Shown here piece after piece: positions 7,006-25,925 of a stretch of 30,948 nt of DNA. The position numbers and the translations under genes are program-made. Numbering within the stretch: the stretch's first letter is position 1; each line of letters begins with the position of its first letter. Below the pieces are notes generated by a model. That model saw nothing but the letters and a program-made list of their open reading frames with translations, was not told where the DNA came from and ran no database searches. The stretch spans positions 1 to 30,948 of the forward strand of contig JBBISH010000082.1 of assembly GCA_037441385.1 (NCBI GenBank), in the 5' to 3' direction. Source of the stretch: Myxococcales bacterium (GTDB lineage Bacteria; Myxococcota_A; UBA9042).

Positions 7006-7030
7006 GTGCGAGGAGCGGGACTTGAACCCG
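7006..7030. repeat. att site: displaced 3' fragment of tRNA-Leu
   Basis: GTGCGAGGAGCGGGACTTGAACCCG, identical to 25901-25925. TGG at 7004-7006 (CCA on the minus strand) overlaps its first base. Confidence 0.95.
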
Positions 7031-7132
7031 ACGAAGCGGAGTTTGCCCACGCCGGCACCCGCTGTCAAGGCTTCGCTGGCCCCCGCACAACGACCACGAC
7101 ACCTGAAGTTTCAGCGCTTTAGCCGCACGCCC

Positions 7133-7408
7133 ATGGGTCCGGCGGTCAAGACCTTTGTGACCACCGGTTGCCTGGGCCAAGAGCTCGGCTTCCTTTGGCG
7201 TCTGACCGGCTTCGTCGACGCCGACACTGGCCGCAGCTGCGCGTGCCAGGTGTGCTGCGAGCTGGCCAGCTTCACCTACGTGGCGATGAACTCGGCTTGC
7301 GGCTGCGCCGACTGCCAGAGCTCGCGAGCGGTGGCCGCTGGCCATGCCTTCCGCCACCGTGGCCTGCGGGCCGAGTGGAACCGCTCGACCCTGCGCCGCG
7401 CGGCCTGA
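7133..7408 (+). CDS. Small Cys-rich hypothetical protein
   Basis: CACQVCC and CGCADC clusters, GC3 bias in the 3' part. Start uncertain. Confidence 0.45.
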   Translation: MGPAVKTFVTTGCLGQELGFLWRLTGFVDADTGRSCACQVCCELASFTYVAMNSACGCADCQSSRAVAAGHAFRHRGLRAEWNRSTLRRAA

Positions 7409-7437
7409 CCTGACCACCCAACAACAGGAGCAACGAC

Positions 7438-7683
7438 ATGAAAATCTTTCACAAGGTTGGCAACTTCTTTGGTGCCATGGAGCGCGTGGTGGACAACGCC
7501 GCGGCCGGCCGCGACGTGCTGGCGCCGCCGTCGTACGTCAACAAGCGCCGCGAGCTGTGCGAGGCCTGCGAGCTGCGCAAGGGCCTGGTGTGTACCCACA
7601 ACGACTGCGGCTGCGTGATTGCGGCCAAGACCCGCCTGATCAGCGAGGCGTGCCCGCTGGGTCGGTGGGGCCGTGTCGCGTAG
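7438..7683 (+). CDS. Small Cys-rich protein, DUF6171-like
   Basis: AGGAG RBS; pattern R-x3-CEAC...C-x4-CGC-x4-K-x7-CP-x3-W. Confidence 0.7.
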   Translation: MKIFHKVGNFFGAMERVVDNAAAGRDVLAPPSYVNKRRELCEACELRKGLVCTHNDCGCVIAAKTRLISEACPLGRWGRVA

Positions 7684-8935
7684 GCAACAGGTCGCCCAGG
7701 ACGGCGACTTTCCATCCGATGCGCCTGCGGACTCGGCCCCGGAGCGGCTGCTTTGGCCGGTTTGGGACCAGGACCAGGGCGGCCCGGCGCGCGACCACGT
7801 CAAGAACACGGAAGCGCTGCTCAAGTACTACAAGGTCCAGGTCCGCTACAACCTGATGACCCACGACCTGGAGGTGACCATTCCCGGCCGCGAGCTGGCG
7901 AGCGAGCGCCGCGCCAACTGCACGGTCGACTGGGTAGAGAACCGCGCCGCCGAGCACGGCCTGAGCCGCGCGCCCATCATCAAGCACCTGCAGGAGTTGG
8001 CCAGCGAGTACCACCCGGTGCGCGACTGGGTCAACGAAAAGCCGTGGGATGGCGTCGACCGCGTACCTCAGCTCATGGCCTCACTTGAACTGGCCGAGTC
8101 GGCCGACCCCGACATGTGTGCGCTGTTGATGCGCCGCTGGCTGCGCGGTGCCGCTGCAGCGCTTTGGCCTGAGTTTGAGCAGAACTTTGCGGCGCAGGGC
8201 GTGCTGGTGCTTCAAGGACCGCAAGGCCATGGAAAGACCAGGTGGCTGCAAAACTTGGTGACTGACCGGAGCTGGATGCTGTCTGGCGAGTTGCTGGACC
8301 CAGGCAATCGGGATTCGACTCAACGGGCCACCTCGGTATGGCTGTGCGAGCTGGGTGAAGTCGATGCGACCTTCCGCAAGGCCGACATCGCCGCACTCAA
8401 ATTCTTTGTCACTCGCACCGAGGACACGTACCGCTTGCCCTATGCCCGTAGGGCCGAGCGCACAGTGCGCCGCACAGTTTTTGTCGCCAGCGTCAACGAC
8501 GAGCAGTACCTGGTCGACCGCACGGGCAACCGGCGCTGGTGGACCGTGTCAATCGAGTGGTGTCACGACCACAACGTCGACATGCAACAGCTGTGGGCCC
8601 AGATGCTGCACGAGGTGGTGCTGGAGAAGGCGCCCTGGTGGCTCGACGAAAGCGAGATGGACCGGCTGAACAACGCCAACCGCAGCCACGAGCAAGAAGA
8701 CGTGATGGCCGGCGTGCTGGGCGAGTACTGGCAAGTGCTCTACCCCGGCGCCGAGATGGGCGACTTCGAGTGGCGTCCGCTGGCCAAGGTCTGCGGCGTG
8801 CTACCGCAGTTTGCCCAGCGCCTGCCCAGCCAGGCCGAGATGCGCCGCGTGACCGACGCGCTGCGCGACATGGGCGTCGCCAAGAAGCGCGACAAGTTTG
8901 GGATGAAGTACTTGCTGCGGCGTATCGCCGACTAG
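7673..8935 (+). CDS. VapE/virulence-associated-E family P-loop ATPase (replicative helicase-like)
   Basis: YHPVRDW...WDGVDR, Walker A LQGPQGHGKT, WLCELGE, RLPYAR, SVN, YLVDRTGNRRWW and QLWAQ motifs. Confidence 0.88.
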   Translation: MSRRQQVAQDGDFPSDAPADSAPERLLWPVWDQDQGGPARDHVKNTEALLKYYKVQVRYNLMTHDLEVTIPGRELASERRANCTVDWVENRAAEHGLSRAPIIKHLQELASEYHPVRDWVNEKPWDGVDRVPQLMASLELAESADPDMCALLMRRWLRGAAAALWPEFEQNFAAQGVLVLQGPQGHGKTRWLQNLVTDRSWMLSGELLDPGNRDSTQRATSVWLCELGEVDATFRKADIAALKFFVTRTEDTYRLPYARRAERTVRRTVFVASVNDEQYLVDRTGNRRWWTVSIEWCHDHNVDMQQLWAQMLHEVVLEKAPWWLDESEMDRLNNANRSHEQEDVMAGVLGEYWQVLYPGAEMGDFEWRPLAKVCGVLPQFAQRLPSQAEMRRVTDALRDMGVAKKRDKFGMKYLLRRIAD

Positions 8936-8944
8936 GGGGGAAAT

Positions 8945-9316
8945 TTGAAGCGAATCAGCACACTTAGAAGTGGCGTGGTCGCCGCGGCCATGATGGCGAT
9001 CGCGGGAGGTGCGGCGGCCGAGGCCTCAGCACCGCCGCTGGAGAGCCAGGCCCCGGCGCAACCGCAGCAAGAGCGCCAGCAAGCGGTGGTCGACGAGGGC
9101 GAGCTGGAGAGCAAGAAGAAGCGGGCCGTGGCGCGCCGCCACCAGATTCCGGTGGTGCTGCACGGGCCGCAGCAAGCGCCGACGACGAGCTGGTCCAGCA
9201 CCGGGGTCCTGTGGTCGGGGTTCAAGGCCAGCCGCAGCTCGACCAGGCCGGCGCGCAAGGTGAACCGACTGCACCTGGCCCGGGCGGCCAAGCAGCGGCG
9301 GCGGAGGGCGCAATGA
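8945..9316 (+). CDS. Hypothetical protein, basic C-terminus
   Basis: Fills the operon between VapE and the next gene (ATGA overlap at 9313-9316). Start uncertain. Confidence 0.5.
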   Translation: MKRISTLRSGVVAAAMMAIAGGAAAEASAPPLESQAPAQPQQERQQAVVDEGELESKKKRAVARRHQIPVVLHGPQQAPTTSWSSTGVLWSGFKASRSSTRPARKVNRLHLARAAKQRRRRAQ

Positions 9317-9579
9317 GCACGAAACCAAAGCAGTTCTACTGGCAATTGCGGCAGCGCAAGACCGGCAAGGTGGGCACAGCGATGCACGCGTACCGCTGCT
9401 TTGACCCAACCAAGCAGCGATGGCCAAAGCCGTGGGTGCCTCTGTGCGGCGAGGGCCAACACCCAACGCATTTTGCGGTCATGTTCGACCAGGTGCGCAA
9501 GGGCGTCCCTGACCCAGAGAAGTACATGGTGTGCGCTGGGTGCTGGCTAGCGGTCCAGGCCGCGCGCCGGGGCAGCTGA
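9313..9579 (+). CDS. Small putative zinc-binding protein
   Basis: GGAGG RBS; H...LCG...CAGC ligand pattern; 88 aa. Confidence 0.6.
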   Translation: MSTKPKQFYWQLRQRKTGKVGTAMHAYRCFDPTKQRWPKPWVPLCGEGQHPTHFAVMFDQVRKGVPDPEKYMVCAGCWLAVQAARRGS

Positions 9580-9600
9580 GCGAACCGCACTTCGGCCACC

Positions 9601-9860
9601 GGTGTAGGGTCTGCGCGACTGCCTACACCCCGAAGTGCGCAAAATCACAGAGCCGCGGTGTAGGCAGTTTGGGAGCCTACACCCGCATACACCTGAAATC
9701 ATTGGCGGTGTAGGCAGTGTAGGCAAAATCCCATGTACGGGAGCGTGCGCCCGCGCTCGCGCACACACGCGCGGAGACCTACACCTACACCTGTGCAGAT
9801 AGTAGAGAGATACCAACAACTTGCGGGTGTAGGCAGCCAATTCGGACCCTACACCCGCAA
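9601..9860. repeat. Putative replication origin: array of GGTGTAGG/CCTACACC repeats
   Basis: Nine exact 8-mers (9601, 9622, 9657, 9676, 9707, 9778, 9784, 9826, 9848) in both orientations; perfect 13-bp inverted repeat 9821-9833/9848-9860. Non-coding, downstream of the VapE operon. Confidence 0.65.
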
Positions 9861-9882: not shown

Positions 9883-10845
9883 ATGGCCAAGAAGCCCAAC
9901 CTCGTCACCTCGAACAGCTGCCCCGGCTGCGGCAAGGACTTTGAAAGTCCCCAAGCAGTGCGGGGACATCTGCGTTTTTGCCCCAACCGCCAGGCCGTGG
10001 TGGGCAAGCAGCCGCCGGCGCCTGCCTTTGTCGCCGAGGTCAAGCCCCAGCCGGCGCCAGTCGCCGCGCCTGCTGCAGCAGCCCCTGCCCAAGCTGCTGA
10101 GCCCAGCGCCGCCCCGGCCTTTGTCGCCCAGGTCGACGCACCGCCGCCGCCCCCTGCCCCGCCGGCCGCCACCGAAGAGACCCAGTATGTGCCGCGGATG
10201 CCCCTGCCCAACCCGCAGGCCGGCACCGGTGGTGTGCCGCTCGAGCAGTGGCATGCAGGCGGCGCCTTCCCCAACCGCCTCGAGGAGCTGCACCCCGAGC
10301 CGCCGGCCCAGGCTCAGCTGCAGGCGGCCGCGGGCACGGTGTCGGTGGCGACGGTGGGCGCACCGGCGGCGCCAGGCGCGCAGCTCGCCCAGGTCGAGTC
10401 CGCCACGCCGGCGGTGGACGTCGTCAAGGTCATGCAAGTCCTGAGCAAGCGCATGTTCCAGTGGGAAGGCGGCGGGCCGCTGACCGACGAAGAGTGCGAG
10501 CTGCTGCGCACCGTCATCACCTGGCAGCCCGGCCCTACCAGCGGCGCCGCGCTGATCCTCGCCGGCGTGTTTGGCCCGCGCCTGCTGACCCACCCCAAGG
10601 TGGCCGACGCCATGGGGCGGCTGTTCGACGCCGGCATCGACCGCCTGGTCAGCGAACTCGGCGGCGACGAGGCCAAGCCTGCAGCGCCACCGGCCCGCGA
10701 AGAGCGTCCAGACGCAGCGGCTTCGATGCCTGCGAGCGTTGCCCAGCCGGTGGCCGTCCGCGACCCCGACGACGAGCTGCGCGCCGAGTGGGCTGCCCGC
10801 GGCGTCGACCTGGACGAAGTGCGCCGCGCAAAGGAGGCGGCATGA
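9883..10845 (+). CDS. C2HC zinc-finger protein with Pro/Ala linker and hydrophobic C-terminal segment
   Basis: AGGAG RBS, ATG 9883; CPGC-x12-H-x3-C; GAALILAGVFG segment; ATGA overlap with the ATPase. Confidence 0.75.
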   Translation: MAKKPNLVTSNSCPGCGKDFESPQAVRGHLRFCPNRQAVVGKQPPAPAFVAEVKPQPAPVAAPAAAAPAQAAEPSAAPAFVAQVDAPPPPPAPPAATEETQYVPRMPLPNPQAGTGGVPLEQWHAGGAFPNRLEELHPEPPAQAQLQAAAGTVSVATVGAPAAPGAQLAQVESATPAVDVVKVMQVLSKRMFQWEGGGPLTDEECELLRTVITWQPGPTSGAALILAGVFGPRLLTHPKVADAMGRLFDAGIDRLVSELGGDEAKPAAPPAREERPDAAASMPASVAQPVAVRDPDDELRAEWAARGVDLDEVRRAKEAA

Positions 10846-11459
10846 CCCGCCGCCCGACCTTTGACCCGCTCATGGCCGACCGCCACGCCTGGGTGCAGGT
10901 GGTGCTGGGCAAGGCCGGCAGCGGCAAGACCAGCTACATGAACCTGGTCCTGGCCCTGTGGCGGCAGCGCCTGGGCGGCCACAGCCTGGCCATTGACGCG
11001 GTGTGCCCACCCAAGCCCACGCCCAAACACCTGGCCTACTGGGCCAGCGCCTGGTGCATCGAGCCGCCCGACGAGCTACGCCCCGAGTTCAGCCTGGTGG
11101 CCTGCGACGAGGCCCAGCGCTTCCTGGGCAGCGGCGGCGTGCGCGGCGGCAACAAGGTCCTGCAAGAAATCACCTTTCGCGGCCGCCACACTGGCAAGTA
11201 CGGCACGTCGGCGCTGCTGGGCACCCAGCGGGCCAAGCACATCCACCCCGACGTGTGGAGCCAGGCCAAGCGGGTGGTGTGCTTCCGCACCATCGACCAG
11301 CACGACCTGGAGCGTATCAGCGACCTGGCGGGCATGACGAGCGAGGCCCTGGCGCTGCTGCCGCACTTGCCGCCGGGCTACGCGGTGGTGTGGGACGAGC
11401 AAGACGGCCTGTTTTACCCGTGGGTTCCCGAGTGGTCCGCGGCGAAGGTGGGCCGATGA
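10842..11459 (+). CDS. FtsK/HerA/A32-like ATPase, putative genome-packaging ATPase
   Basis: 205 aa; Walker A VVLGKAGSGKTS, Walker B LVACDEAQ, arginine-finger RGRH, LLGTQR, VVCFR. No TM. Confidence 0.82.
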   Translation: MTRRPTFDPLMADRHAWVQVVLGKAGSGKTSYMNLVLALWRQRLGGHSLAIDAVCPPKPTPKHLAYWASAWCIEPPDELRPEFSLVACDEAQRFLGSGGVRGGNKVLQEITFRGRHTGKYGTSALLGTQRAKHIHPDVWSQAKRVVCFRTIDQHDLERISDLAGMTSEALALLPHLPPGYAVVWDEQDGLFYPWVPEWSAAKVGR

Positions 11460-11686
11460 TCACGCCGGACTGCCTGCGAAGCGTGCGGCAAGCGCGCGGC
11501 CTGTCGATTGAGGCCGTGGCGGAGCTCGCAGGGTACGCCCCAGGCACGGTCTGGAGACTTGAACAAGGTCGCGCAGTTCGGTGGCAAGTCCTGGTCGACG
11601 TGGCCTTGGCGCTGGGCGTTTTACATGCGGGACGCGGGAGCGGTGCACACTCACCTGTGCAAGTCATTGATTGCATGGCGTGTTGA
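11456..11686 (+). CDS. XRE-family HTH regulator
   Basis: LRSVRQARGLSIEAVAELAGYAPGTVWRLEQG; ATGA overlap with the ATPase stop. Confidence 0.85.
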   Translation: MITPDCLRSVRQARGLSIEAVAELAGYAPGTVWRLEQGRAVRWQVLVDVALALGVLHAGRGSGAHSPVQVIDCMAC

Positions 11687-11731
11687 CGGAAAGTCGGGTC
11701 TGTCAACCCGCGTACTCTTCAATATATTGAA
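11682..11731. promoter_or_regulatory. Putative control region of the structural operon
   Basis: GTTGAC-N14-GTCAAC (11682-11707) and perfect AT-rich palindrome TTCAATATATTGAA (11718-11731) upstream of the capsid-candidate RBS. Confidence 0.45.
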
Positions 11732-11819: not shown

Positions 11820-13067
11820 ATGGCGATTCGTACTCTGGCGCGCAAGACCAACACCGGCACCGGGACCCTGCAGGTCATCCAGGATCCCATCTACGACCAC
11901 ACCTTCCGCGTCGACGCAGTTCTCATCAAGCTGCGGGCGAACATCAAGAACACTGATACCTCCGCGCAGAACATGAGCGCCGCCACGTTTGGCCACGCCT
12001 GGAAGCTGAAGTACGAGTACGCCGACGGCATGAAGTGGTACGACAACGTGCCGCTGGTCGCTGTGGAGCGTATCTTCGAGCAGACCACGCGCAACTATCT
12101 GGTCAACCCAGTGGAATTCGCCAAGTCGGCGGCGTCGTCGGCTCTGTCGACTTACAGCAGCGATGGCCTGATTTCGGCCGGTGCGGCGCCGAACCCCGTC
12201 ACCGGCAACATCAACGACCTGACCCGGAGCTTTCAGAAGGAAGTGCGCGACCGCCGCGTCATTGCCGTCAGCGGCACGGCGTCGGACATCGACTTCCGCT
12301 TCCTGCTGCCCCTGGCGCGGCCCAACGCGAGCAAGCCGGTGGACTTCTGCCAGGCCCTGTCGCTGCTGGGCAAGCTGGACGTCCAGCTGACCAACGACAC
12401 CGGCAATGCTTTCCTGACCGTCAACAGCTTCACGGTCGAGGCCATCGCCATCGGCGAGCGCGTGGACAACTTCTACGCCGGCGTCCGCACCCGCCACTTC
12501 ATCCAGGGCGCCCAGCTCAACGTCATCGACGACGCCATCGCCTTTTCGGGCGACCGCCTGCTGGCGCACCACATGTACGCCACCAGCGGCAGCATCGCCG
12601 GAGTCGACCTGGTCGCCAAGCTGGACGGCAGGCACACCATCGTCGAGCTGAACAATGGCACGGTGGTCACCGAGTTGAACAAGCTGACCGGCGTGGTGGC
12701 CGGCGACTTCCCGGCCGACAGCGAGCGCAACATGACCGACGCGGTGTTGGTGGTCGCCGAGCCGTTCAAGTACAGCATCTTGGACCGGCCCATCAGCCGG
12801 GGCCTGAGCCTGCACTGGTCGAGCAACGCGGGCACGCCCGGTACCCAGTTCCACGTGGTGTCGGTGGCGGCGCCCAAGTCGGACCGCTGCCGCGTGGCGA
12901 CCTACCCGGGCGGCGGCAACATTACCCCGGCCAGCCTGGACCGCGTGACCCGCGTGCAGGCCCGCAACCCCGGCATCGACCCCAACGTGCTCAAGAACAT
13001 CAAGGACTGGCTGCCCGAAGAGGTCTTCACCCCCGAGGCCACCGGCTCGGCGCCCTGCGGGGCGTAG
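11820..13067 (+). CDS. Putative double-jelly-roll major capsid protein (415 aa)
   Basis: AGGAG RBS and strong codon bias. Two repeats of a strand-strand-DG-strand-helix pattern (VDAVLIKLRA..KLKYEYADG..VPLVAVERIF..FRFLLPL..LDVQLT; LLAHHMYA..LVAKLDGRHTIVEL..VVTELNKL). No TM; located just after the packaging-type ATPase. Fold inferred by eye. Confidence 0.68.
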   Translation: MAIRTLARKTNTGTGTLQVIQDPIYDHTFRVDAVLIKLRANIKNTDTSAQNMSAATFGHAWKLKYEYADGMKWYDNVPLVAVERIFEQTTRNYLVNPVEFAKSAASSALSTYSSDGLISAGAAPNPVTGNINDLTRSFQKEVRDRRVIAVSGTASDIDFRFLLPLARPNASKPVDFCQALSLLGKLDVQLTNDTGNAFLTVNSFTVEAIAIGERVDNFYAGVRTRHFIQGAQLNVIDDAIAFSGDRLLAHHMYATSGSIAGVDLVAKLDGRHTIVELNNGTVVTELNKLTGVVAGDFPADSERNMTDAVLVVAEPFKYSILDRPISRGLSLHWSSNAGTPGTQFHVVSVAAPKSDRCRVATYPGGGNITPASLDRVTRVQARNPGIDPNVLKNIKDWLPEEVFTPEATGSAPCGA

Positions 13068-13085
13068 TTCGCAAACCGCCGGCGG

Positions 13086-13097
13086 CTATGTGAATAG
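13086..13097 (+). repeat. CTATGTGAATAG motif, copy 1
   Basis: 19 nt after the capsid-candidate stop, in context CCGCCGGCGG-motif-CCTGCAGGCGG. Confidence 0.9.
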
Positions 13098-13176
13098 CCT
13101 GCAGGCGGTGGTGACCAGCTGGGCCGGGTGGATTCCCTGCCCGGCCCGGCTGGTGGTTCTGAGGGCCGAGGTCGCG

Positions 13177-13995
13177 ATGGCATCGAAGTTCGGAAACATC
13201 AAAGACCTCTGGTCCAACTTGGACACCTGTATTCGCGACAGGACGTCCTGGATTGAGCTGGGTTCGGCAGCGACCGGTGGATATCCGGCCATGCTCAAGC
13301 TCCTCGCTGAGAAGGCCCAGGAGTGCTCGGCTGACCCGAATACCCAGTACCGGACGGCAGTACAACTCGCTGAACTCTTTGGGCAGACGCCACCGAAGCA
13401 GTCAGATTTTGGCATCAACGCGGATGGGACTGTCGGCAAAGGAACCACCATGAACGACGGACGCGGCTCGCAGACGGTTGGTGACCCGGCCGACCAGGCC
13501 AAGAACCAACATGACGACATCGCCCGGGCCATTTCGTACCAGTTGCTCGGCACCAGTTGCACCAGCGACATCCAGCTTCCGGGCAACACCTGGTCGCGCT
13601 GCCGGACTGGCATGGATGGCTACGGCTATACCATTGACACGTCGCGCTACCCGCTGACCAACAAGCAATTCGTGGCGATTAAGCAGGCTGTGCAAGATGC
13701 GGCGGCTCTGGGGACCACACCCGACGACATGCTTGCCCGCGGCCAGGCGGCCGCCACGGCGGAGCTCGCCAAGCTGGGCATTGGGGCCAAGCTGCCCGGC
13801 CCATCCGGCGGCCCCGGCATGATCCCCGGCGAAGTCGGCCCCGGCATGATCCCCACCGGCGGCGACCCCGGCAGCACCGGCACCAGTCGGCCCCAAAAGT
13901 CCAACACCGTCGCCATGGCCGGCCTGGGCCTGCTGGGCGGCGCCATCGCGCTCGTGGGCGCCTGGTACATCGCCAAGGCCGTCAAGGCCAAGTAA
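13177..13995 (+). CDS. Tail-anchored membrane protein, putative virion protein
   Basis: GAGG RBS; four Cys; Gly/Pro linker with GPGMIP twice; C-terminal TM then AKAVKAK. Confidence 0.7.
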   Translation: MASKFGNIKDLWSNLDTCIRDRTSWIELGSAATGGYPAMLKLLAEKAQECSADPNTQYRTAVQLAELFGQTPPKQSDFGINADGTVGKGTTMNDGRGSQTVGDPADQAKNQHDDIARAISYQLLGTSCTSDIQLPGNTWSRCRTGMDGYGYTIDTSRYPLTNKQFVAIKQAVQDAAALGTTPDDMLARGQAAATAELAKLGIGAKLPGPSGGPGMIPGEVGPGMIPTGGDPGSTGTSRPQKSNTVAMAGLGLLGGAIALVGAWYIAKAVKAK

Positions 13996-14021
13996 GCGCC
14001 CGCAGCGCCAAAGGATTCGCC

Positions 14022-14450: not shown

Positions 14451-14455
14451 GCACG

Positions 14456-15851: not shown

Positions 15852-15858
15852 GGTTACT

Positions 15859-18410: not shown

Positions 18411-18414
18411 TCCG

Positions 18415-18444: not shown

Positions 18445-18467
18445 CGCCGGCAACCGACGAGGGCAGC

Positions 18468-18827: not shown

Positions 18828-18989
18828 ATGACAAAGGCAAACGCGCACAGCGACAAGCACAAGCCGACAAAGGCAGAGCTTCAAGAGCAGGTGCGGAAAA
18901 TCCAAAAGGAAGTTCGCAAGGTAGTGGGCGACAAGCGCAGCTTGGTCGACGAGTTCCTGGCCGAAAAGCACCAGGCCCCGCAGCAGTGA
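18828..18989 (+). CDS. vapB: Short VapB-like antitoxin
   Basis: GGAGG RBS; SLVDEFLAEK resembles VapB C-termini; GTGA overlap with the PIN gene. Confidence 0.62.
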   Translation: MTKANAHSDKHKPTKAELQEQVRKIQKEVRKVVGDKRSLVDEFLAEKHQAPQQ

Positions 18990-19378
18990 AGTACCTGCTC
19001 GACGCCTCGGCGCTGCTGGCCGTGGCCAACAACGAGCGCGGCGCCGACGTGGTCATGGATGCCGCCGGGCTCGCCGTGATCAGCTCAGTCAACTACGCAG
19101 AAGCCGCACTGAAGCTGCGAAGAACGGGCATTCCCATGACCGTATTGATGCAGCTCAAAGCGGTGTTTCCCGTTGTCCCGTTTGCCGCCGCCGATGGCTT
19201 CTACGCCGGTTCGATTGCTGTGGACAGACCCCGACGCGATTCTGGATTTGGGCTTGGTGACCGGTGCTGCCTTGCTGTGGCCAAGCGACTCAAGGCAGTT
19301 GTGCTGACCAGCGACAAGAAGTGGGCTGAGCACGACGAGGCGACCAAGACCGGCGTGCAGCTGCTGTTTATTCGCTAG
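18986..19378 (+). CDS. vapC: PIN-domain VapC-family toxin
   Basis: YLLDASALLA, ISSVNYAE, GLGDRCCLA, VLTSDKKW. Confidence 0.9.
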   Translation: MKYLLDASALLAVANNERGADVVMDAAGLAVISSVNYAEAALKLRRTGIPMTVLMQLKAVFPVVPFAAADGFYAGSIAVDRPRRDSGFGLGDRCCLAVAKRLKAVVLTSDKKWAEHDEATKTGVQLLFIR

Positions 19379-19381: not shown

Positions 19382-19771
19382 CTACGCCACCCGGTCCGCA
19401 GCCCAACCCCGCACGACCCGCCCCACCCAGGGCTCGCGCACGTACCGATGCACCACCGCCGAGTACTCGGCCACGTCCTTCGGCACAAAGGCGCGGTGCT
19501 GACTGTCCAGCCCGGCAACCTGCACGGTCGCGTTGCGCCACTCGTTGGGCCCGACGCCGTCGCAGGACTGCCACGCGGCCCGGCTGGCCAGCTGCCACTG
19601 CACTTCGAGCAGCGCGCCCACCTCGTGGTGGTGGCGCACGCGGTGCTGCTCGCGGAGCTCGATGGTCAGGGCTTCGAGCATGTCCGAGTTGGCGCGGCCG
19701 TGGTTCAGGGCCAGCAGCTCGCGCACCAGGCCGCGGGTGTCGACGGTTCGTTCGTAGGAGCGGCGCGGCAT
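19382..19771 (-). CDS. Hypothetical protein (129 aa)
   Basis: GAGG RBS before the ATG at 19771; directly downstream of the nucleotidyltransferase-like gene. Confidence 0.6.
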   Translation of the reverse strand: MPRRSYERTVDTRGLVRELLALNHGRANSDMLEALTIELREQHRVRHHHEVGALLEVQWQLASRAAWQSCDGVGPNEWRNATVQVAGLDSQHRAFVPKDVAEYSAVVHRYVREPWVGRVVRGWAADRVA

Positions 19772-19785
19772 GGGTACCTCGAGTG

Positions 19786-19797
19786 CTATGTGAATAG
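19786..19797 (+). repeat. CTATGTGAATAG motif, copy 4
   Basis: In the 38-nt gap between two minus-strand genes; followed by GCTGCA as in copies 3 and 5. Confidence 0.9.
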
Positions 19798-19809
19798 GCT
19801 GCAAGCCCA

Positions 19810-20481
19810 CTACGACAGCTTGTAGCGCTTCTTGGCCTTGGGATGGCCAACGCTCTGCAGCATCGTTTCCAGGCGCCCCATCAGCAGCGGCGCGTACTTG
19901 GCAGTCAGCTTGCGCACCTGGTCGACGTCGGTGGTCGGCAGCAGCAGCAGGCGGCACACGTCGTCGTCGTCGGTGGGCCGGGCCGCCGCCAACTTCATGA
20001 TCAGGAGCATCGGCGCCGACACCACCGGCAGGCAGCGCCCGCCCACTTCGACCTGCAGTTGCTCGCGCTTGCTGGCGGCGATAGCGGCGCGAAACAGCGC
20101 GCTCAGGTCGCCCCACTCGGGGTTGCTGCGGTCGATGAAGTCGACGTTGACCCCGCTCGCCTTGTCGCTGGCGTTGAAGCCGCCAATCAGCAGCTCTTGC
20201 ACCTTGAGGCCCTTCTTGGTCGCCCAGGCTCGCAGCTTCGGCAAGTCTGCCGGGGCGACCCCCATGTCCAGGTCCTTGGTAAAGGCCTGCTGCGAGGGGT
20301 CGGTTACCCAGGCCCACACCGCCAGGCGGCCGATGAGCACGCCGGCGACGCCCGTTTCGCGCAGGGCATCGTCGGCCAGGCGGCCACTGGGCGCTGGGTC
20401 AAAGGTCGGGAACGGCCGGCCGGCGTTGACGATGGTGACGCCGTTTGATTTTGCGGGTTTGCTGCCGGGTTTGCTGGGCAT
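19810..20481 (-). CDS. Pol-beta-superfamily nucleotidyltransferase-like protein
   Basis: LIGRLAV...TKDLD, VDFI and LLIMKLAAARPTDDDD motifs (AbiEii/DUF6036-like pattern). Confidence 0.72.
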   Translation of the reverse strand: MPSKPGSKPAKSNGVTIVNAGRPFPTFDPAPSGRLADDALRETGVAGVLIGRLAVWAWVTDPSQQAFTKDLDMGVAPADLPKLRAWATKKGLKVQELLIGGFNASDKASGVNVDFIDRSNPEWGDLSALFRAAIAASKREQLQVEVGGRCLPVVSAPMLLIMKLAAARPTDDDDVCRLLLLPTTDVDQVRKLTAKYAPLLMGRLETMLQSVGHPKAKKRYKLS

Positions 20482-20531
20482 GGGTCACCTCGCCTTGCAG
20501 TCTAGGGGTGGGGCGGTGGGGGGAGCAAGGG

Positions 20532-20894
20532 TCAGGCTTTGGGCTTCTTGCCAAAGAGACCGCGAAAGAGCTCCAGAAGCCCGGGAATGGCGAATACAAC
20601 CAGCGCACCGAAACAGAACGACTGAATCAGCGACACCGCCTTGTCCAGCTCGATACCGCCAACTGTCATGCCGACCAGGGCGCAAAATGCCAAGAGAAAT
20701 ACCACGAAGCCAACAATGATCATGCGGTGTAGCCTGTCCAGCTCGGCCATCCGCGCCTTGTGGCGGGCCCGGTGTTGCTCAAGGCGTCGGTCGAGGTCGC
20801 GCTGATGGGCCTGAAGGTGTCGCTCAAGCAAAGTCAGCAGTTGCTCAAAGATAGCCCTGTCGGGGCTTTCGGGCGTTGGACTCGGCTGCGTCAT
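20532..20894 (-). CDS. Membrane protein (coiled coil plus two TM segments)
   Basis: GAGG RBS; IIVGFVVFLLAFCALVG and FCFGALVVFAIPGLL. Confidence 0.65.
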   Translation of the reverse strand: MTQPSPTPESPDRAIFEQLLTLLERHLQAHQRDLDRRLEQHRARHKARMAELDRLHRMIIVGFVVFLLAFCALVGMTVGGIELDKAVSLIQSFCFGALVVFAIPGLLELFRGLFGKKPKA

Positions 20895-20927
20895 AGGCTA
20901 TCCTCGCGGCACCCAAAGGAGGTGACG

Positions 20928-21464
20928 ATGCGACGACTACTTGTGGCAGCTCTGACCCTGGCCGCATGCGCGGCACCATATCGACAGATTCCGGTTGCAG
21001 ACCGGATAGCACCAGCCGCCAAGGTCGGTATCCTGGAATTCCGCGACTGCCCCAATGCGAAGGGCCCAACGTGCGACGGCAGCGGAGTGGCCGCTACTGC
21101 AGCATTTTCGAAGGGCTTTGAAGAAGAAGCCAAATTGACGCTGGTGCGAATTGCCCGGCCGGTTGCGGCCAACGCGCTGATCACCGACAAGCAGGCGATT
21201 GCGGCCGCAGCGGGCGAAGGCGTTGATTTTGTGTTGGTCGGCGACGTGCACGCGTACTTGGACATGCAGCCGTCCGGCGCACCCGTGGAGATGTACGGTG
21301 GGGGCAACCGCGACCAGGCTGGGCTGCTCGTGCGGCTGATTCGGCTTCGCGACAAGCGTGTGGTGGCGACCTTGAACCAGGACCAGACTGGCATGGCCAG
21401 GGACGTCCCGGACGAAATGTTCCAGAACATGGGCGCGGACTTCGCGCGGACAGTTCGGCAGTAG
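20928..21464 (+). CDS. Putative lipoprotein (alpha/beta domain)
   Basis: AAGGAGG RBS; MRRLLVAALTLAAC lipobox; GVDFVLVGDV strand. Confidence 0.75.
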   Translation: MRRLLVAALTLAACAAPYRQIPVADRIAPAAKVGILEFRDCPNAKGPTCDGSGVAATAAFSKGFEEEAKLTLVRIARPVAANALITDKQAIAAAAGEGVDFVLVGDVHAYLDMQPSGAPVEMYGGGNRDQAGLLVRLIRLRDKRVVATLNQDQTGMARDVPDEMFQNMGADFARTVRQ

Positions 21465-21465
21465 C

Positions 21466-21831
21466 TCACGCCGACTTCCGCTCTTCCAGCGGCCTCAGCT
21501 GAATCCCCCGCTCATCCGCGAACTTCTGGACGTCGGCCAGGTCGAAGCGAAGCTCGCCGAGGGCCTTGCGGGCAGAGAGCTGGCCGCGGTGCACGTACAT
21601 CCCGACCGCGCCAGCGGAAACGCCGAGCATGTCCCCGACTTCCTGCGACGTAAGACCGCTGATCATCGAACGAAAGCGCTCCAGCTCGTCCAGGCTGTAG
21701 ACGATTGCCGTCCCGCCCGCGACGCGCTCGTGCTGCAACTCACCCTTTCGGGTCCAGTGCCGCACCATGTACTCGGACATGTTGAGCATTTGAGCTGCTG
21801 CGCGTACCCCGAACAACTGTGCCTCTGTCAT
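21466..21831 (-). CDS. Tandem MerR/excisionase-type HTH protein, putative repressor or recombination directionality factor
   Basis: Two repeats: VRAAAQMLNMSEYMVRHWTRKGEL and TSQEVGDMLGVSAGAVGMYVHRGQL. Confidence 0.82.
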   Translation of the reverse strand: MTEAQLFGVRAAAQMLNMSEYMVRHWTRKGELQHERVAGGTAIVYSLDELERFRSMISGLTSQEVGDMLGVSAGAVGMYVHRGQLSARKALGELRFDLADVQKFADERGIQLRPLEERKSA

Positions 21832-21856
21832 GGCCGACTCTCGCGGCGTAGGCCGC

Positions 21857-21921
21857 ACTATACAAAATTGACGTGGGCACCGTCAAGACATGTTGACATC
21901 CCTACGAGCCCCCGCTAAGCT
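21857..21921. promoter_or_regulatory. Back-to-back sigma70-type promoters with operator-like inverted repeat
   Basis: Plus: TTGACA 21893-21898, N17, TAAGCT 21916-21921. Minus: TTGACG 21886-21881, N18, TATAGT 21862-21857. TTGACG-N7-CGTCAA at 21868-21886. Confidence 0.65.
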
Positions 21922-21944: not shown

Positions 21945-22454
21945 ATGAAGAACCCGCACCCAACCCCAAGAACAATCATGCACATGGTCCAGAGCGCGGC
22001 CGAGGCCCACCTGGACTGCCGACTGCGCGAAGCCGAGGCCCAGGCCGCCTTCGACCGCAACAACCGCGCCGAGCAGGCGCTGTCCACTGCCGAGAAAGCT
22101 TTCGTCCAAGCCCGGGCCAACCTGCTGACCTTCATCGCCCGGACCAACCCCACCAGCATGAAGGTGAGCGCGATGGACGAGTTCGCCGTCCTCGCCGCCA
22201 CCTACCGCGACCGCGCCAACGCCGGCCTGGCCGCCAGCGAGGAGTTCATCACGTCCTCGTACGACGTCATGCGCGAGCGCAACGACACCGGGACCCTCGC
22301 CAAGCTCAAGCTGGACCTGGAGCTCCGCGCCAAGCGCCTGAGGATGGCGGTCAAGGCCGAGCCCTGCGACTGCGACGAGTGCCAGTGGGAGCGCGACCAT
22401 CCCACCGTCAAGGACACGGCCGAGGTCGACGGGCCTTCCGGCGGGGAGGGCTAG
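21945..22454 (+). CDS. Helical hypothetical protein with CDCDEC motif
   Basis: GGAGG RBS; first gene of the rightward early operon. Confidence 0.65.
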   Translation: MKNPHPTPRTIMHMVQSAAEAHLDCRLREAEAQAAFDRNNRAEQALSTAEKAFVQARANLLTFIARTNPTSMKVSAMDEFAVLAATYRDRANAGLAASEEFITSSYDVMRERNDTGTLAKLKLDLELRAKRLRMAVKAEPCDCDECQWERDHPTVKDTAEVDGPSGGEG

Positions 22455-22457
22455 GTC

Positions 22458-22856
22458 ATGGCGACCACCCGCGAAGACATCCTTGCCCTGGTCCGCACCT
22501 ACGCCACAGACGTTGGCGCGTGCCAGTTTGCGAGCGACGCCCAGTACGCCCAAATGCAGGTCGCGGCTCGGGCCACGTTCGCCAAGATTGAGGCGGCGGT
22601 GGGCGAGTTGCAGCGGACGCCGGACGACTTGCCGGCCTGCATCGAGAGCTGGGTGCTTGCGAAGGCGGCGAGCGTCCGCAGCTGGAAGGCCATGAGCCTG
22701 AAGCGTATCGGACGCGACGAAGTCACCTACGAGATTGAATTGGCCATCGCGCGGCTGGTCAAGGCCGGCCGCCTGCAGCGCCTGAACTTTGGACACGGGC
22801 ATGTGGAATACGAGCTTCGCGCGGTCGACCAGGCCGCTGCCGACAAGGAGGCCTGA
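22458..22856 (+). CDS. Hypothetical protein with C-terminal winged-helix-like motif
   Basis: IELAIARLVKAGRLQRLNFGHGHVEYEL. Confidence 0.6.
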   Translation: MATTREDILALVRTYATDVGACQFASDAQYAQMQVAARATFAKIEAAVGELQRTPDDLPACIESWVLAKAASVRSWKAMSLKRIGRDEVTYEIELAIARLVKAGRLQRLNFGHGHVEYELRAVDQAAADKEA

Positions 22857-22859
22857 GCC

Positions 22860-23756
22860 ATGACCCCGAACCACACCCCAGACCCGCGTATCGTCGACAT
22901 CCTGGAAGCCGCCGAGGCCGTGGCCGTGGAGCGCGCCGCCCTGGCCGCGGCCCGCGCCGCCGAAGACGCCGCCCGGGCGGTCGAGCAGGCGGCCCAAGTC
23001 GCCTACGTCGAGGCCCACAACGCCAGCATCGCGGCAGTGCGCGAGGCCTGCACCAGCGTGGACTGGGCCGACGCCAACACCACCACCACCACCCAGCGCG
23101 CCTTGACCGCGTTTCATGCCCGGCGCAAGGCCAGTGATGCGGCGGCGGCGGCGCAGGCCGCGGTCGACCAGGCGCAGCAGCGGTTCAGCGCGGCGCTGGA
23201 ACGGCAGCAGGCCGCCATTTCGATGGTCGAACTGGCGCTGGCGGCGCTGAAGGTCTTCCTGGCCGAGCCGGAGACCGACCCGTCCAGCCTGGTAGACGAA
23301 CTCATGGACTCGCTGAAGGCCAAGAACTGGGTTGAGGTATCCGGCCAGGTCCCGCCGCGGGTCGAGCAGACCGCCGGCGTCTATGTGAATAGGCTGCAGG
23401 TGCCGGCACTCGACCGCGACCAGGCCATTGGCGCCCAGGTGCGGGCCGAGCTCGCCACCGCGCCGGCCCGGGTGCCTGTCTTGCCCGAGCCCGACCTCAC
23501 GGGGCTGCGCAGCCGCGCCCTGGCCATGATGAAGGTCTTGATCAAGGCCGACGCGCCCGTGGCCGTCGCCACCATCATGCGCGAAACCGGCTTGAGTTCC
23601 GCCGAGGTATCGCGAGCCGGCTACGACCTGCGCCAGGCGGGCAAGGCCCAGAAGCTCGGCCCGGGCTTTTGGGCCCACGCCAAGTACACGGGGCCGAAGT
23701 TCGACGACAACCACGACCAGCACTGGGCCAAGCGGACGGCCAAGGCGGAGGTATAG
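22860..23756 (+). CDS. Ala-rich coiled-coil protein with C-terminal winged HTH
   Basis: AAGGAGG RBS; VATIMRETGLSSAEVSRAGYDLRQAGKAQKLGPGFW. Confidence 0.7.
   Translation: MTPNHTPDPRIVDILEAAEAVAVERAALAAARAAEDAARAVEQAAQVAYVEAHNASIAAVREACTSVDWADANTTTTTQRALTAFHARRKASDAAAAAQAAVDQAQQRFSAALERQQAAISMVELALAALKVFLAEPETDPSSLVDELMDSLKAKNWVEVSGQVPPRVEQTAGVYVNRLQVPALDRDQAIGAQVRAELATAPARVPVLPEPDLTGLRSRALAMMKVLIKADAPVAVATIMRETGLSSAEVSRAGYDLRQAGKAQKLGPGFWAHAKYTGPKFDDNHDQHWAKRTAKAEV
23371..23400 (+). repeat. CTATGTGAATAG motif, copy 5, 30-bp extended form inside a CDS
   Basis: CCGCCGGCGTCTATGTGAATAGGCTGCAGG, in the linker of ORF 22860-23756. Confidence 0.92.
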
Positions 23757-23759
23757 GCC

Positions 23760-24056
23760 ATGGCCAAGAAGCGCATTCCCACCAAGCCCTTGCTGCTCAG
23801 CGACCTGCAGCGCGCTGTGCTGCTGCTCATCGGCCACACCGACCGCGCCACCGTGCACGGCCTGCTGCGCCAGCTGCCGGCGCTGGGGCACCAGGTGCGC
23901 CAAACCGTGCTCGAGCAGCTGCTCGAGGAGCTCACGGACTGGAATTTCTGCGCCAGCTACCCGTCGACGGACCGCCAGGGCCGCACGCGATACCTGCGCC
24001 TGACCATCCTCGGCCGAGAGGCCGTGGCTACCCCTACGGCTCAAATCGAGTTGTAG
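23760..24056 (+). CDS. Small winged-helix-like (PadR/MarR-like) protein
   Basis: GGAGG RBS; LEQLLEELTDWNFC...RTRYLRLTILGREAV. Confidence 0.62.
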   Translation: MAKKRIPTKPLLLSDLQRAVLLLIGHTDRATVHGLLRQLPALGHQVRQTVLEQLLEELTDWNFCASYPSTDRQGRTRYLRLTILGREAVATPTAQIEL

Positions 24057-24098
24057 TCTCAATGCCCTCGCCGGGCCACCCAAGGAGCCGTTACCACC

Positions 24099-24647
24099 AT
24101 GAAACTCTTGACCCTTCTCAAAACCTCGGCCCACCAGGCCATTGACGTGCGCCGCAAGACCCTGGAAGCCAAGCTCGCCCTGCTGGACCAGCAAGACGAG
24201 CTGATTGACGAAGTCGACGAGGCCACGCTGGCCGAAGTGCTCGAGCTGGTCGCCAACTTTGGCGGCCCGGACCTGACTGGCATTCCCGACCTGGCCGACC
24301 TGAGCGACCGCCTGGCCGACGTGGCCGTCAACAAGAAGGCGCCGGACGTCGCCACCCCCACCGAACCCGCGCCCAGCGAAGTCCTGGACCCGCCGCCGCC
24401 CGACCCCAACTTCGACGCGCAGCCGGCCGCCCTGGCCCAGGAGCACATCGACCTGGTGCACCAGGTGCTGAGCCGCCAGGGCGACCGCGTGCGCCAGAGC
24501 GAGGCCGGTCTGGTCAACCAGCTGCCCGAGCTGGGCGCCGAAGTCGTGAGCGCCGCCGTCGACCACCTGGTGAGCAGCGGCGTGGTCGAGCGCGTGGGCG
24601 AAGGCGTCGTCCGGGTGCTGACTCAATTCGTGCGCAGCGCGCTGTAG
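24099..24647 (+). CDS. Acidic hypothetical protein with C-terminal winged-helix-like motif
   Basis: AAGGAG RBS; VSAAVDHLVSSGVVERVGEGVVRV. Confidence 0.62.
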   Translation: MKLLTLLKTSAHQAIDVRRKTLEAKLALLDQQDELIDEVDEATLAEVLELVANFGGPDLTGIPDLADLSDRLADVAVNKKAPDVATPTEPAPSEVLDPPPPDPNFDAQPAALAQEHIDLVHQVLSRQGDRVRQSEAGLVNQLPELGAEVVSAAVDHLVSSGVVERVGEGVVRVLTQFVRSAL

Positions 24648-24669
24648 TACCCGCTGTAGGAGCCGAATC

Positions 24670-25866
24670 GTGACCGACACCGCCGCCAGCTTCACCTTGC
24701 ACCGGGCCGACCATCGCGGCGCCGAGAGCTGGCGTGCGGTGGTCACGTTGCCCGATGGCCGCAAGCTTTGGTTCCGCCGGCCGACCAAAGCCCTGGCCCA
24801 GGCCGCCGCCCAGGCCGCCCTGGTCGCCGGCACCACCATCACCATCGAGCGCGCCATCGACGAGTACTGCGTGCTGCGCTTTGAAGGCGGGGCCTGGAGC
24901 AAACACACCGAGCGGCGCGCCAGGCTGGACCTGGGCGACCTGGTGGGCCAGGACAGCCAGCCCATCGCCAGCATGGGCCGCCAGGCGCTGCTCGAATACC
25001 TGGAGCGGACCAAGCACCTGGCGCTGGCCAGCCGCCGCACCCGCTGGGCCAGCGTGGTGGCCTGGCTCAAGTTCTGCGTGGCCGAGGGCTGGCTGGACCG
25101 CAATCCGGCCGACTTGATTGACCGCAGCCGCAAACCCTGGCTGGGCAAGCGGGCCAAGCGGCAAATCGGCCGAGGCAAGGCGCAGTTGCGCAACTCAGAC
25201 GAAGTGCAGCGGTACATTACCGAGGCGCTCCGGCTGGTCGAGCTTGAAGAGCGGGTGGCGGTGCTGCTGCCGCTGCTGTGCAACATGCGCTCCGGCGAGG
25301 TACTGCACTTGACCTGTGGCGACGTGGACTTGCCGCTGGGCGTGCTGCATGTGCGCGACCAAGACGCGCGCGAAGACGACGACGAAGGCTGGTCGGTCAA
25401 GAGCGTGGCCGGTCGCCGGTCGGTATACATCCCCCAGCTGCTGGCGGCCGACCTGGCGCTGCTGGTGCAAGACCAACCGCTGGACCGCTGGCTGTTTGGC
25501 TGCTGGGGCCGCGAAAAGGGCGACCGCCGCCGGCGCGTGCCCCACGACTGCGAGTGGCTGGCGCGCCTGGTCGAAGGGGTGTGCGAGCGGGCCCAGACGC
25601 GCATCGTGAAACCTCACGGGTTGCGGGGCACTTACATGACCGTGCTGGCCGTGGTCGGCAAGGTCGCACCGATGGACATCGCGCGCTTGGTCGGCCACGG
25701 CGACGCCGGCTACACCGCCGAGCGCCACTACCTGGGTGCGCTGAGCCCGCAGCCGGCGATGCCGGAGCTGGGCGCGAGCGCGAACACCGTGAAAGGACGC
25801 GAGAACCCGGGCAGCGATTCACAAGTTTCTAACGGCCCATTGGGGCAATCGGGGGAATGCCAATGA
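24670..25866 (+). CDS. int: Tyrosine recombinase/integrase
   Basis: Catalytic set visible: MRSGE (R), VKS (K), HGLR, VGH, RHY; core-binding domain ending RNPA; adjacent to att/tRNA. Confidence 0.93.
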   Translation: MTDTAASFTLHRADHRGAESWRAVVTLPDGRKLWFRRPTKALAQAAAQAALVAGTTITIERAIDEYCVLRFEGGAWSKHTERRARLDLGDLVGQDSQPIASMGRQALLEYLERTKHLALASRRTRWASVVAWLKFCVAEGWLDRNPADLIDRSRKPWLGKRAKRQIGRGKAQLRNSDEVQRYITEALRLVELEERVAVLLPLLCNMRSGEVLHLTCGDVDLPLGVLHVRDQDAREDDDEGWSVKSVAGRRSVYIPQLLAADLALLVQDQPLDRWLFGCWGREKGDRRRRVPHDCEWLARLVEGVCERAQTRIVKPHGLRGTYMTVLAVVGKVAPMDIARLVGHGDAGYTAERHYLGALSPQPAMPELGASANTVKGRENPGSDSQVSNGPLGQSGECQ

Positions 25867-25900
25867 ACGCCAGAATCAATCGCAATACCAATGGGTTGCA

Positions 25901-25925
25901 GTGCGAGGAGCGGGACTTGAACCCG
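25901..25925. repeat. att site overlapping the tRNA-Leu 3' end
   Basis: Identical 25-mer to 7006-7030. Confidence 0.95.

Follow-up and report, generated by a model that had tools for sequence, protein, structure and literature searches.

What kind of element occupies positions 7006-25925 of contig JBBISH010000082.1, assembled from a Myxococcales bacterium (GCA_037441385.1; lineage Myxococcota_A, UBA9042)? The window, that is, the whole stretch of DNA analysed here, has a length of 30,948 nucleotides (nt), and an earlier reading made from the letters alone (the sequence-only reading) had taken this segment for an apparently complete tailless provirus of the double-jelly-roll (DJR) type. It had named as contrary outcomes a different fold of the presumed capsid protein, or an ATPase grouping with conjugation or Zot ATPases together with membrane genes matching secretion components. 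What we found was a predicted DJR fold, an ATPase that stands apart from the conjugation and Zot groups, and membrane genes that matched no secretion component in Pfam, PHROGs or NCBIfam. The proposal is thus supported, and the segment is very probably an integrated temperate tailless DJR virus of the PRD1/STIV-like prokaryotic branch of Bamfordvirae, residing in a myxobacterium-like host.

The evidence that carries this interpretation comes above all from a plus-strand gene at 11820-13067, which starts with an ATG behind the ribosome-binding site AGGAGA and encodes a predicted major capsid protein of 415 amino acids (aa). By sequence, the protein matched nothing in Pfam, PHROGs, NCBIfam, 50,697 phage records (tblastn) or 72,556 plasmids, and its best match to the PDB in a phmmer search was at chance level (expectation value, E, 0.27). 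Six homologs of 396-414 aa, 45-77% identical, were found at E <= 1e-3 in a set of 5.8 billion sequences; among 1.84 billion cluster representatives, 15 clusters matched at E <= 1e-3, eight at <= 1e-10 and three at <= 1e-30. The family alignment comprised 20 sequences, and a 1332-aa protein matching only residues 360-408, the C-terminal 50 or so, was excluded from it. With this alignment and no templates, AlphaFold2 gave a model with a predicted local distance difference test (pLDDT) of 81.6 and a predicted template-modelling score (pTM) of 0.83, the five models ranging from 79.5 to 81.6 in pLDDT. The model is rich in beta strands, which form two successive blocks like the two-fold internal pattern that the sequence-only reading had noticed, and it contains a disordered, indel-rich loop at residues 101-135.

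The fold search that had been proposed for this protein gave a consistent picture. In Foldseek, the model had 132 matches to the PDB at E <= 1e-3, and the best 24 of the 132 were all viral DJR capsid or scaffold proteins. P3 of PR772/PRD1 came first (E 8e-14 to 5e-12, probability 1.00, template-modelling (TM) score 0.47-0.54, about 405 columns at 10-12% identity), followed by the STIV capsid (4e-10) and then by PBCV-1, grouper iridovirus, Sputnik and vaccinia D13. Among the predicted viral structures of BFVD, tectivirus GC1 (7e-12), Wip1 (1.7e-10) and the STIV capsid (1.8e-9) were retrieved, with a few rows of low TM score to unrelated capsids further down at E of about 1e-5. Clusters that a language model picked as look-alikes of the capsid protein carry the Pfam domains P3_N/P3_C and P2_N/P2_C; this is a lead only, and in one such cluster P2_N/P2_C occur in just 10-12% of the members. 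At the level of the fold, the model argues strongly that the 415-aa protein is a DJR capsid protein.

A second hallmark gene lies upstream on the same strand, at 10842-11459. Its product, 205 aa long, is a packaging ATPase of the HerA/FtsK superfamily with a Walker A motif (GKAGSGKT) at residues 23-30, a Walker B motif at D89/E90 and no hydrophobic segment, much as the sequence-only reading had described it (a short soluble FtsK/HerA/A32-type ATPase). Nine homologs of 48-90% identity were collected. Searched against the PDB, the family profile matched the core domain of HerA-type proteins (5e-9 to 3e-7) and STIV B204 (1.4e-8 for 4r2h and 2.9e-7 for 4kfr). The sole secretion ATPase among the PDB profile matches listed was VirB11 (E 0.063, through the P-loop alone), and no FtsK, coupling-protein or VirB4 chain appeared in this search at E <= 1. 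In the phage collection, tblastn retrieved the ATPases of HCIV-1, PH1 and SH1 (30-34% identity over 44-54%, E 3e-3 to 8e-3) and, as the only other match, one unannotated 10.7-kb phage record. None of the ten family members matched the Pfam families of Zot, FtsK_SpoIIIE or type IV secretion at E <= 0.1. Their Pfam matches were all weak, to AAA_10 in seven of ten and to Pox_A32 in six of ten (best E 4.3e-4), and all ten matched phrog_2666. An A32-like packaging ATPase of the FtsK/HerA superfamily, as known from prokaryotic DJR viruses, is therefore present.

Genes of tailed phages were sought across the whole element. Because the window is GC-rich (0.61-0.74 per 1-kb window), raw lists of open reading frames (ORFs), of which there are 249 of at least 50 aa, were swamped with spurious frames. 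Genes were called from third-position G+C content and from a codon log-likelihood trained on obvious long genes, which left 34 ORFs between the terminal repeats, and the family searches in Pfam, PHROGs and NCBIfam covered 33-34 of them. At E <= 0.01, Pfam assigned at least one family to 11 of 33 proteins; six families were above the curated cut-offs, namely VapE-like helicase, Glucosaminidase, Amidase_2, DUF5679, PIN and HTH_17/MerR. PHROGs gave matches for nine of 33, and NCBIfam added above its cut-off only the 'excise' domain. No portal, tail or HK97-type/tailed-phage capsid family was matched in any of the three collections, in keeping with the earlier remark that the segment has no terminase-, portal- or tail-like ORF. 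The PHROG category 'head and packaging' was reached three times, and the labels involved call for caution. One belongs to phrog_2666, matched by the ATPase; the others come from weak, partial matches, at E 0.0059 to the 'minor coat protein' phrog_7781 and at E 0.0016, in the helix-turn-helix (HTH) part, to the 'terminase small subunit' phrog_57. The label of phrog_2666, 'terminase large subunit', is also the one that RefSeq gives to the ATPases of PRD1, SH1, PH1 and HCIV-1, tailless viruses themselves.

The boundaries are sharp. A repeat scan found two 25-nt direct repeats, 100% identical, at 7006-7030 (attL core) and 25901-25925 (attR core), giving a repeat-to-repeat unit of 18,895 bp (about 18.9 kb); by a rough estimate of our own, not the output of a tool, chance would supply an exact 25-mer pair within 20 kb about 1e-7 times. 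The repeats had been noticed before; the right copy turns out to be the final 25 nt of an intact host tRNA-Leu(GAG) on the minus strand (25901-25985; ARAGORN, and Rfam tRNA at 53 bits vs a cut-off of 29), the integration target. A plus-strand gene at 24670-25866, whose stop is 35 nt from the attR core, encodes a tyrosine integrase of 398 aa (phrog_1 'integrase', E 1.7e-24; 18.9 bits against Pfam Phage_integrase, under the cut-off of 27.1). The sequence-only reading had credited this enzyme with all catalytic residues. Its identity as an integrase stood, and the full catalytic set (R-K-H-R-H/W-Y) is plausible but only partly shown: a weak alignment to XerA (E 0.16) places R207, H316, R319 and H343 at the motif positions, and K244 and Y354 were assigned by eye alone. 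Direct repeats, one of which completes the 3' end of a tRNA, together with an adjoining integrase form the arrangement of a provirus integrated by a tRNA-targeting tyrosine integrase, and the element between them may be complete. The flanks hold cellular genes, which encode a transglycosylase-domain protein, a globin, and VWA, Somatomedin-B and Dicty_CTDC-repeat proteins. The assignment of the host to Myxococcota draws on these flanking genes and on the label of the related genome described below.

Behind the capsid gene, the late region is rich in genes for membrane-anchored proteins. Of the 34 ORFs, 11 contain one or more hydrophobic 19-mers (Kyte-Doolittle mean >= 1.6), so that the many small membrane proteins reported earlier were recovered; seven of the 11 make up a run of small late-operon proteins at 13090-16957, of which five consecutive ones (13090-15851) are anchored at the C-terminus and two (15859-16164 and 16604-16957) have N-terminal segments. 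The two lysins of the sequence-only reading were also confirmed, both on the plus strand. One is a peptidoglycan glucosaminidase (16957-17646) with an N-terminal membrane or signal segment at residues 3-21, matching Pfam Glucosaminidase (E 1.9e-12) and PHROG endolysin families. The other is an N-acetylmuramoyl-L-alanine amidase (17646-18239) with an N-terminal membrane segment at 8-26, matching Amidase_2 (E 5.9e-15) and 11 PHROG families at E <= 0.01, 10 of them labelled endolysin or amidase.

Relatives were sought with the eight closest capsid sequences in one genome per species, covering 185,579 species. The scan gave 35 pattern matches and one true relative, a 7,899-bp contig from a metagenome-assembled genome of an uncultured Myxococcales bacterium, with a capsid protein 77% identical to ours. 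Of the 34 element proteins, 12 have counterparts in the same order on this relative (38-90% identity). The matching stretch begins with the gene next to attL and reaches five genes beyond the capsid gene, at which point the contig breaks off inside the module. The att core is found there too, at 118-142, with one mismatch and at an equal distance from the first gene. Comparison of its left flank with the attL and attR flanks of our window showed no clear similarity to either. Contigs carrying capsid homologs reach 18,635 bp and those carrying ATPase homologs 18,456 bp, as compared to the 18,895 bp of the unit here, which is suggestive of homolog contigs of about 18.5 kb being whole genomes. 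A megablast search with the whole element found no match among the 50,697 phage records.

Several observations weigh against the interpretation as a DJR virus. By sequence, Pfam capsid families were matched by none of the 20 capsid family members and the family profile had no match in the PDB; hhalign gave PRD1 P3 a probability of 3%. The DJR assignment comes from a predicted structure that leaves residues 101-135 unmodelled and whose matches reach moderate TM scores (0.45-0.55). None of the ORFs is established as the penton gene, that at 16257-16607 being the sole candidate suggested by modelling, and no spike or receptor-binding protein was recognised among the ORFs of the element. About 20 of the 34 ORFs obtained no assignable function in Pfam, PHROGs or NCBIfam, and the anchored proteins encoded after the capsid gene are all that points to a putative internal membrane.

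Some of these gaps would fit a cryptic or domesticated remnant of a DJR provirus, kept for its toxin-antitoxin pair, its accessory genes or a particle-like function, and making no infectious virions. That no penton, spike or receptor-binding gene was recognised and that many ORFs are unassigned is what such a remnant might display, and the G+C content of the element, equal to that of its flanks (0.673 vs 0.656 and 0.661), fits a long residence. However, the two att cores match exactly, every part of the element has strong codon scores, and no module gene was seen to be frameshifted or truncated. The left 7.9 kb is also colinear in the relative, with the same iterons and hairpin (described below), in spite of protein divergence of 10-60%; because this arrangement has been kept despite such divergence, selection on the whole module is suggested. 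We consider a remnant improbable, though not negligibly so. A phage satellite or another helper-dependent integrative element is a far weaker contender. Satellites of the P4-like kind, and those resembling phage-inducible chromosomal islands, are typically built around an integrase, an excisionase and a primase-helicase of the VapE type, and an integrase, an excisionase-like HTH protein and a VapE helicase are all present here. The element has, however, its own capsid protein, packaging ATPase, set of membrane proteins and two lysins, and no gene matches in PHROGs the head or tail families of tailed phages, which a satellite would hijack or reshape; a satellite is very improbable.

It is also conceivable that the segment is not viral, i.e. 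a small conjugative or mobilisable island or a HerA defence island, in which DNA transfer or defence would be the task of the ATPase and the membrane proteins, and the 415-aa protein would be a cellular beta-sandwich. Cellular homologs of DJR proteins do exist, according to the accessible part of PMC8812541, and the ATPase cross-matches anti-phage HerA models (PADLOC HerA, E 1.6e-8; NCBIfam HerA_antiphage, E 7e-4, far below the cut-off) besides its weak matches to AAA_10. But at 205 aa vs 560-700 aa for HerA, it matches in the core domain only, and we read the cross-match as superfamily membership because the ATPase has one third of the length of HerA. Moreover, Pfam, NCBIfam and PADLOC found no relaxase, coupling protein, VirB4 or partner nuclease, two lysins stand behind the membrane genes, and the virus capsid and scaffold proteins that make up the best 24 of the 132 fold matches speak for a capsid. 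A non-viral origin is accordingly the least credible of these alternatives and would surprise us greatly. An integrated DJR virus remains the reading that we prefer.

Where among the known DJR viruses this element belongs is a further question. In structure, the capsid model comes closest to members of Tectiviridae (PRD1, PR772, GC1 and Wip1; Kalamavirales). The P3 gene of PRD1 (8595-9782 of its genome) encodes 395 aa vs 415 aa here, and both genomes share a late gene order of ATPase, small gene or genes, capsid, many small membrane proteins and lysis genes. Unlike tectiviruses, the element has no protein-primed DNA polymerase or terminal protein among its 33-34 ORFs (Pfam, PHROGs, NCBIfam) and no terminal inverted repeats, none of its 16 inverted pairs joining both ends; it has direct att repeats instead and is integrated by means of a tyrosine integrase. 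Pfam Phage_Capsid_P3_N/P3_C were matched by none of the 20 capsid family members, and besides P3, the hhalign comparisons with PRD1 P9 and P31 were not significant (probabilities of 6% and 0.3%). Judged by its sequence, the element falls outside the definition of a tectivirus.

STIV (Turriviridae) has an ATPase of the same length class, B204 having 210 aa, with the profile match given above; the capsid model likewise matches the STIV capsid but ranks nearer to PRD1 P3. According to the accessible parts of PMC5894146, viruses of the STIV group have a B204-like ATPase and often a tyrosine integrase; PIN and HTH genes and a small beta-sandwich protein are described as well, and the group includes proviruses of bacteria. 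Tyrosine integrase, PIN, HTH, a small protein modelled as a beta-sandwich and the provirus state are all present here, whereas the replication gene is a VapE-type helicase and not one of the MCM, Rep or PolB type named in those parts. Myxobacterial members appear neither in the text nor in two supplementary files of that report; its other supplementary files could list such members. As far as those parts go, the description of the STIV group fits the element best, by description and not by a tree, and the fold ranks PRD1 above STIV.

PM2-like proviruses of Vinavirales, DJR prophages of Vibrio and NO16-type vibriophages are known, to judge from the available parts of PMC9966536, PMC11630473 and PMC12715192, and PM2-like viruses (Corticoviridae) resemble the element in being small, tailless, temperate, chromosomally integrated and easily overlooked. 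They differ in that Pfam P2_N/P2_C were matched neither by the proteins of the element nor by the 20 capsid family members, and no PM2 chain is among the best 24 of the 132 fold matches. With about 270 aa, the PM2-type capsid protein is also far shorter, and the replication of PM2 relies on a rolling-circle Rep. The archaeal icosahedral membrane viruses SH1, PH1 and HCIV-1 gave the strongest tblastn matches to the ATPase among the phage records, and differ in their archaeal hosts and in having no tblastn match to the capsid protein of the element. Their capsids are built of two single-jelly-roll proteins instead of one DJR protein, and their genomes are linear.

The element represents a rare lineage with its own combination of modules and a capsid protein unrecognisable by sequence; the kind of virus is already known. 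Temperate tailless DJR proviruses are well described in the accessible parts of PMC5894146, PMC9966536, PMC11630473 and PMC12715192. The sequence-only reading had also suggested an undescribed lineage, and with no match in the phage and plasmid collections this suggestion was upheld. A literature search returned no report of a DJR, tectivirus-like or non-tailed virus in myxobacteria. To our knowledge, the myxobacterial viruses known so far are tailed, and the search brought up nothing to the contrary. A bolder statement would be that the element, together with its few relatives, founds a new lineage of temperate viruses, tailless and membrane-containing, at the rank of a family or possibly an order, and that these are the first non-tailed viruses of Myxococcota, combining a PRD1-sized DJR capsid invisible to profiles, a STIV/HerA-like ATPase, a VapE helicase with a fixed origin of ten iterons and five tail-anchored virion membrane proteins, and that the copy in this window is still inducible. 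Taken as a whole, we put this forward tentatively and with slightly more doubt than belief.

If the interpretation is true, the kingdom of DJR viruses reaches another bacterial phylum through a tailless membrane-containing temperate virus, and myxobacterial genetics would gain an integrating element that is small, at 19 kb, and has its att site defined in tRNA-Leu. The capsid family, seen by its fold alone, is a concrete example of viral dark matter beyond profile-based prophage annotation, and a profile made from the 20-sequence alignment would let others detect the lineage. The accepted view of how DJR viruses work would be unchanged.

The life cycle may be pictured as follows. The integrase and the HTH protein would recombine core with core to release an 18.9-kb circle, in which nearly all genes would run in one direction, from 21945 through the integrase, attP, helicase, ATPase, capsid and membrane proteins to the lysins. 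The helicase may load at the iteron array and recruit the replication enzymes of the host. Capsid trimers would assemble together with the small anchored proteins on a virus-modified vesicle, producing an icosahedral shell with an internal membrane, into which the ATPase would package the DNA through a single vertex. Lysis of the cell could then fall to the two hydrolases tethered to the membrane, with a small membrane protein as holin. In the integrated state, the minus-strand cluster and the PIN module might maintain lysogeny or benefit the host.

The replication module occupies the left part of the element on the plus strand. It begins with a small Cys-rich ORF of 91 aa (7133-7408; weak coding score, no family match) and a small Cys-rich protein of 81 aa (7438-7683) that belongs to a phage family (phrog_13558, E 2.7e-13), both 74% identical in the relative. 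The replication protein (7673-8935) is a helicase of the VapE/D5 type (superfamily 3), with matches to VapE-like_dom (E 1.2e-45) and to PHROG helicase/primase families (E 2e-54 to 1e-17). Two small ORFs were then called by codon score, 8945-9316, which is 59% identical in the relative, and 9313-9579, which has no match there and may not be a real gene. All ten copies of the heptamer GTGTAGG in the 30.9-kb window, where 1.32 were expected, lie within the 253-bp non-coding gap at 9602-9854, five on each strand in the order + - + - + + - - + -. The relative has the same ten copies in identical order at 2473-2726. This iteron array is likely to be a replication origin or an operator/regulator array. 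A 33-nt repeat pattern (9669/9841) had been considered as the unit; a search of the loci for it, in the form tried, gave no match, and the heptamer is the real unit.

The next plus-strand gene encodes a protein of 320 aa (9883-10845) that has a Cys/His motif and a linker rich in Pro and Ala and is conserved in its C-terminal part. It is located directly upstream of the ATPase gene and is 70% identical in the relative, and no family was matched in Pfam, PHROGs, NCBIfam or PADLOC; to call it an assembly factor would be a guess. Because ATG 9733 lies inside the iteron array, the start was moved to ATG 9883, which follows GGAG, and the upstream start is probably wrong. Between the ATPase and capsid genes sits a gene for a small XRE-type HTH regulator of 76 aa (11456-11686, plus strand; Pfam HTH_31, E 1.1e-11; 86% identical in the relative). 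A sigma-70 promoter scan found two sites vs 1.4 expected, and terminators numbered nine vs 14.0 expected, neither above chance; of the two promoter-like sites, one (11700-11728) precedes the capsid gene and the other (21886-21857) the minus-strand HTH gene, both in gaps where a promoter would make sense.

The C-terminal end of the capsid family has a feature of its own. Downstream of the second barrel, residues 397-415 form a conserved tail, WL(P/A)E..V.T....G...C(G/D), in which W397, L398, E400 and C413 are invariant in the eight closest members; a membrane contact or a disulphide are guesses at its role. Just after the capsid gene there is a conserved hairpin (13064-13119, plus strand) with the apex CUAU-GUGA-AUAG and a fold z-score of -3.6, which is also present in the relative. 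The 12-mer CTATGTGAATAG has five exact copies in the window, at 13086, 16191, 18423 (minus strand), 19786 and 23381, all inside the element, where 0.01 were expected; the relative has an exact copy at 5958 and copies with one mismatch at 2447 and 3609. The copies are mostly intergenic, one lying inside the ORF 22860-23756, and two of them, in opposite orientation, agree over 30 nt. The GC-rich arms on either side of the motif pair into hairpins in three of the six copies that were folded (z < -3.5), including the post-capsid copy of both elements. The motif may serve to end or stabilise transcripts, or to bind a protein.

Immediately downstream, a plus-strand gene at 13090-13995 encodes a 301-aa protein with a C-terminal membrane anchor (residues 273-291), 70% identical in the relative and without family match, which is a candidate vertex or membrane structural protein. 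Its GTG start at 13090 falls within the loop formed by the conserved hairpin and is probably wrong; the true start may be ATG 13177, which has a GAGG before it. The other four C-terminally anchored proteins are small and also on the plus strand, at 14022-14450, 14456-14956, 14953-15309 and 15306-15851, with hydrophobic segments at residues 118-136, 135-165, 86-116 and 157-175, respectively. The second and third of these are paralogs, 67% identical over their C-terminal 43 residues, with a 129-nt DNA repeat at 75%, and the relative matches only the first of the pair (14456-14956). This suggests a tandem duplication within the set of virion membrane genes.

The rest of the late operon is likewise on the plus strand. 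A 101-aa glycine-zipper membrane protein (15859-16164; Gly-zipper_YMGG, E 6.8e-5, below the cut-off) has its N-terminal anchor at residues 8-26. The 116-aa protein at 16257-16607 is soluble and all-beta, with eight strands in its best model, and is the candidate single-jelly-roll penton mentioned above. Its alignment held two sequences; the best model reached a pLDDT of 77.7 and the other four of the five 40-45, Foldseek returned generic beta-sandwich or jelly-roll domains only (E about 4e-4), and hhalign gave no match to PRD1 P31 (the 0.3% cited above). Directly before the lysins, a 117-aa protein (16604-16957; weak phrog_1397) with an N-terminal membrane segment at 8-26 is holin-like by position alone. 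After the lysins come two very small basic proteins (18267-18635), one of 47 aa resembling a zinc ribbon (DUF5679, E 4.5e-8) and one of 55 aa called by codon score.

At the end of the plus-strand operon, a 53-aa ORF overlaps by 4 nt the start of a gene for a 130-aa PIN protein (Pfam PIN, E 2.4e-11). The two (18828-19378) form a probable VapBC-type toxin-antitoxin pair, in which the antitoxin role of the 53-aa ORF would follow from its position alone. The minus-strand cluster at 19382-21858, presumed to be a lysogeny or accessory module, encodes proteins of 142 and 223 aa, a 120-aa membrane protein with two segments and a regulator with two HTH domains of the excisionase/MerR type (21466-21858; HTH_17, E 3.8e-15; TIGR01764 'excise' above the cut-off; PHROG excisionase families). 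Apart from this regulator, the cluster had no matches in Pfam, PHROGs, NCBIfam or PADLOC, and the 223-aa protein had no relative in the PDB. A plus-strand ORF (21087-21464) was called between the minus-strand genes. PADLOC identified no defence system among the accessory genes, its sole matches being cross-matches of the HTH protein (mad1) and the ATPase (HerA, mad8). Upstream of the integrase, five plus-strand ORFs of 169, 132, 298, 98 and 182 aa (21945-24647) have strong codon scores, and the only match among them is a weak one of the 298-aa protein to HTH_IclR.

Two minor observations concern the left side of the integration site. A tRNA remnant left of attL had been suspected from a TTCGAATC-like string, and a search found none. 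Further to the left, a 573-aa frame on the minus strand (1255-2976; Pfam Exo_endo_phos, E 2.5e-30) overlaps the start of the plus-strand ORF 1642-5046, in which the transglycosylase domain covers residues 932-1073 only; the true start of the plus-strand gene is probably much later than 1642.

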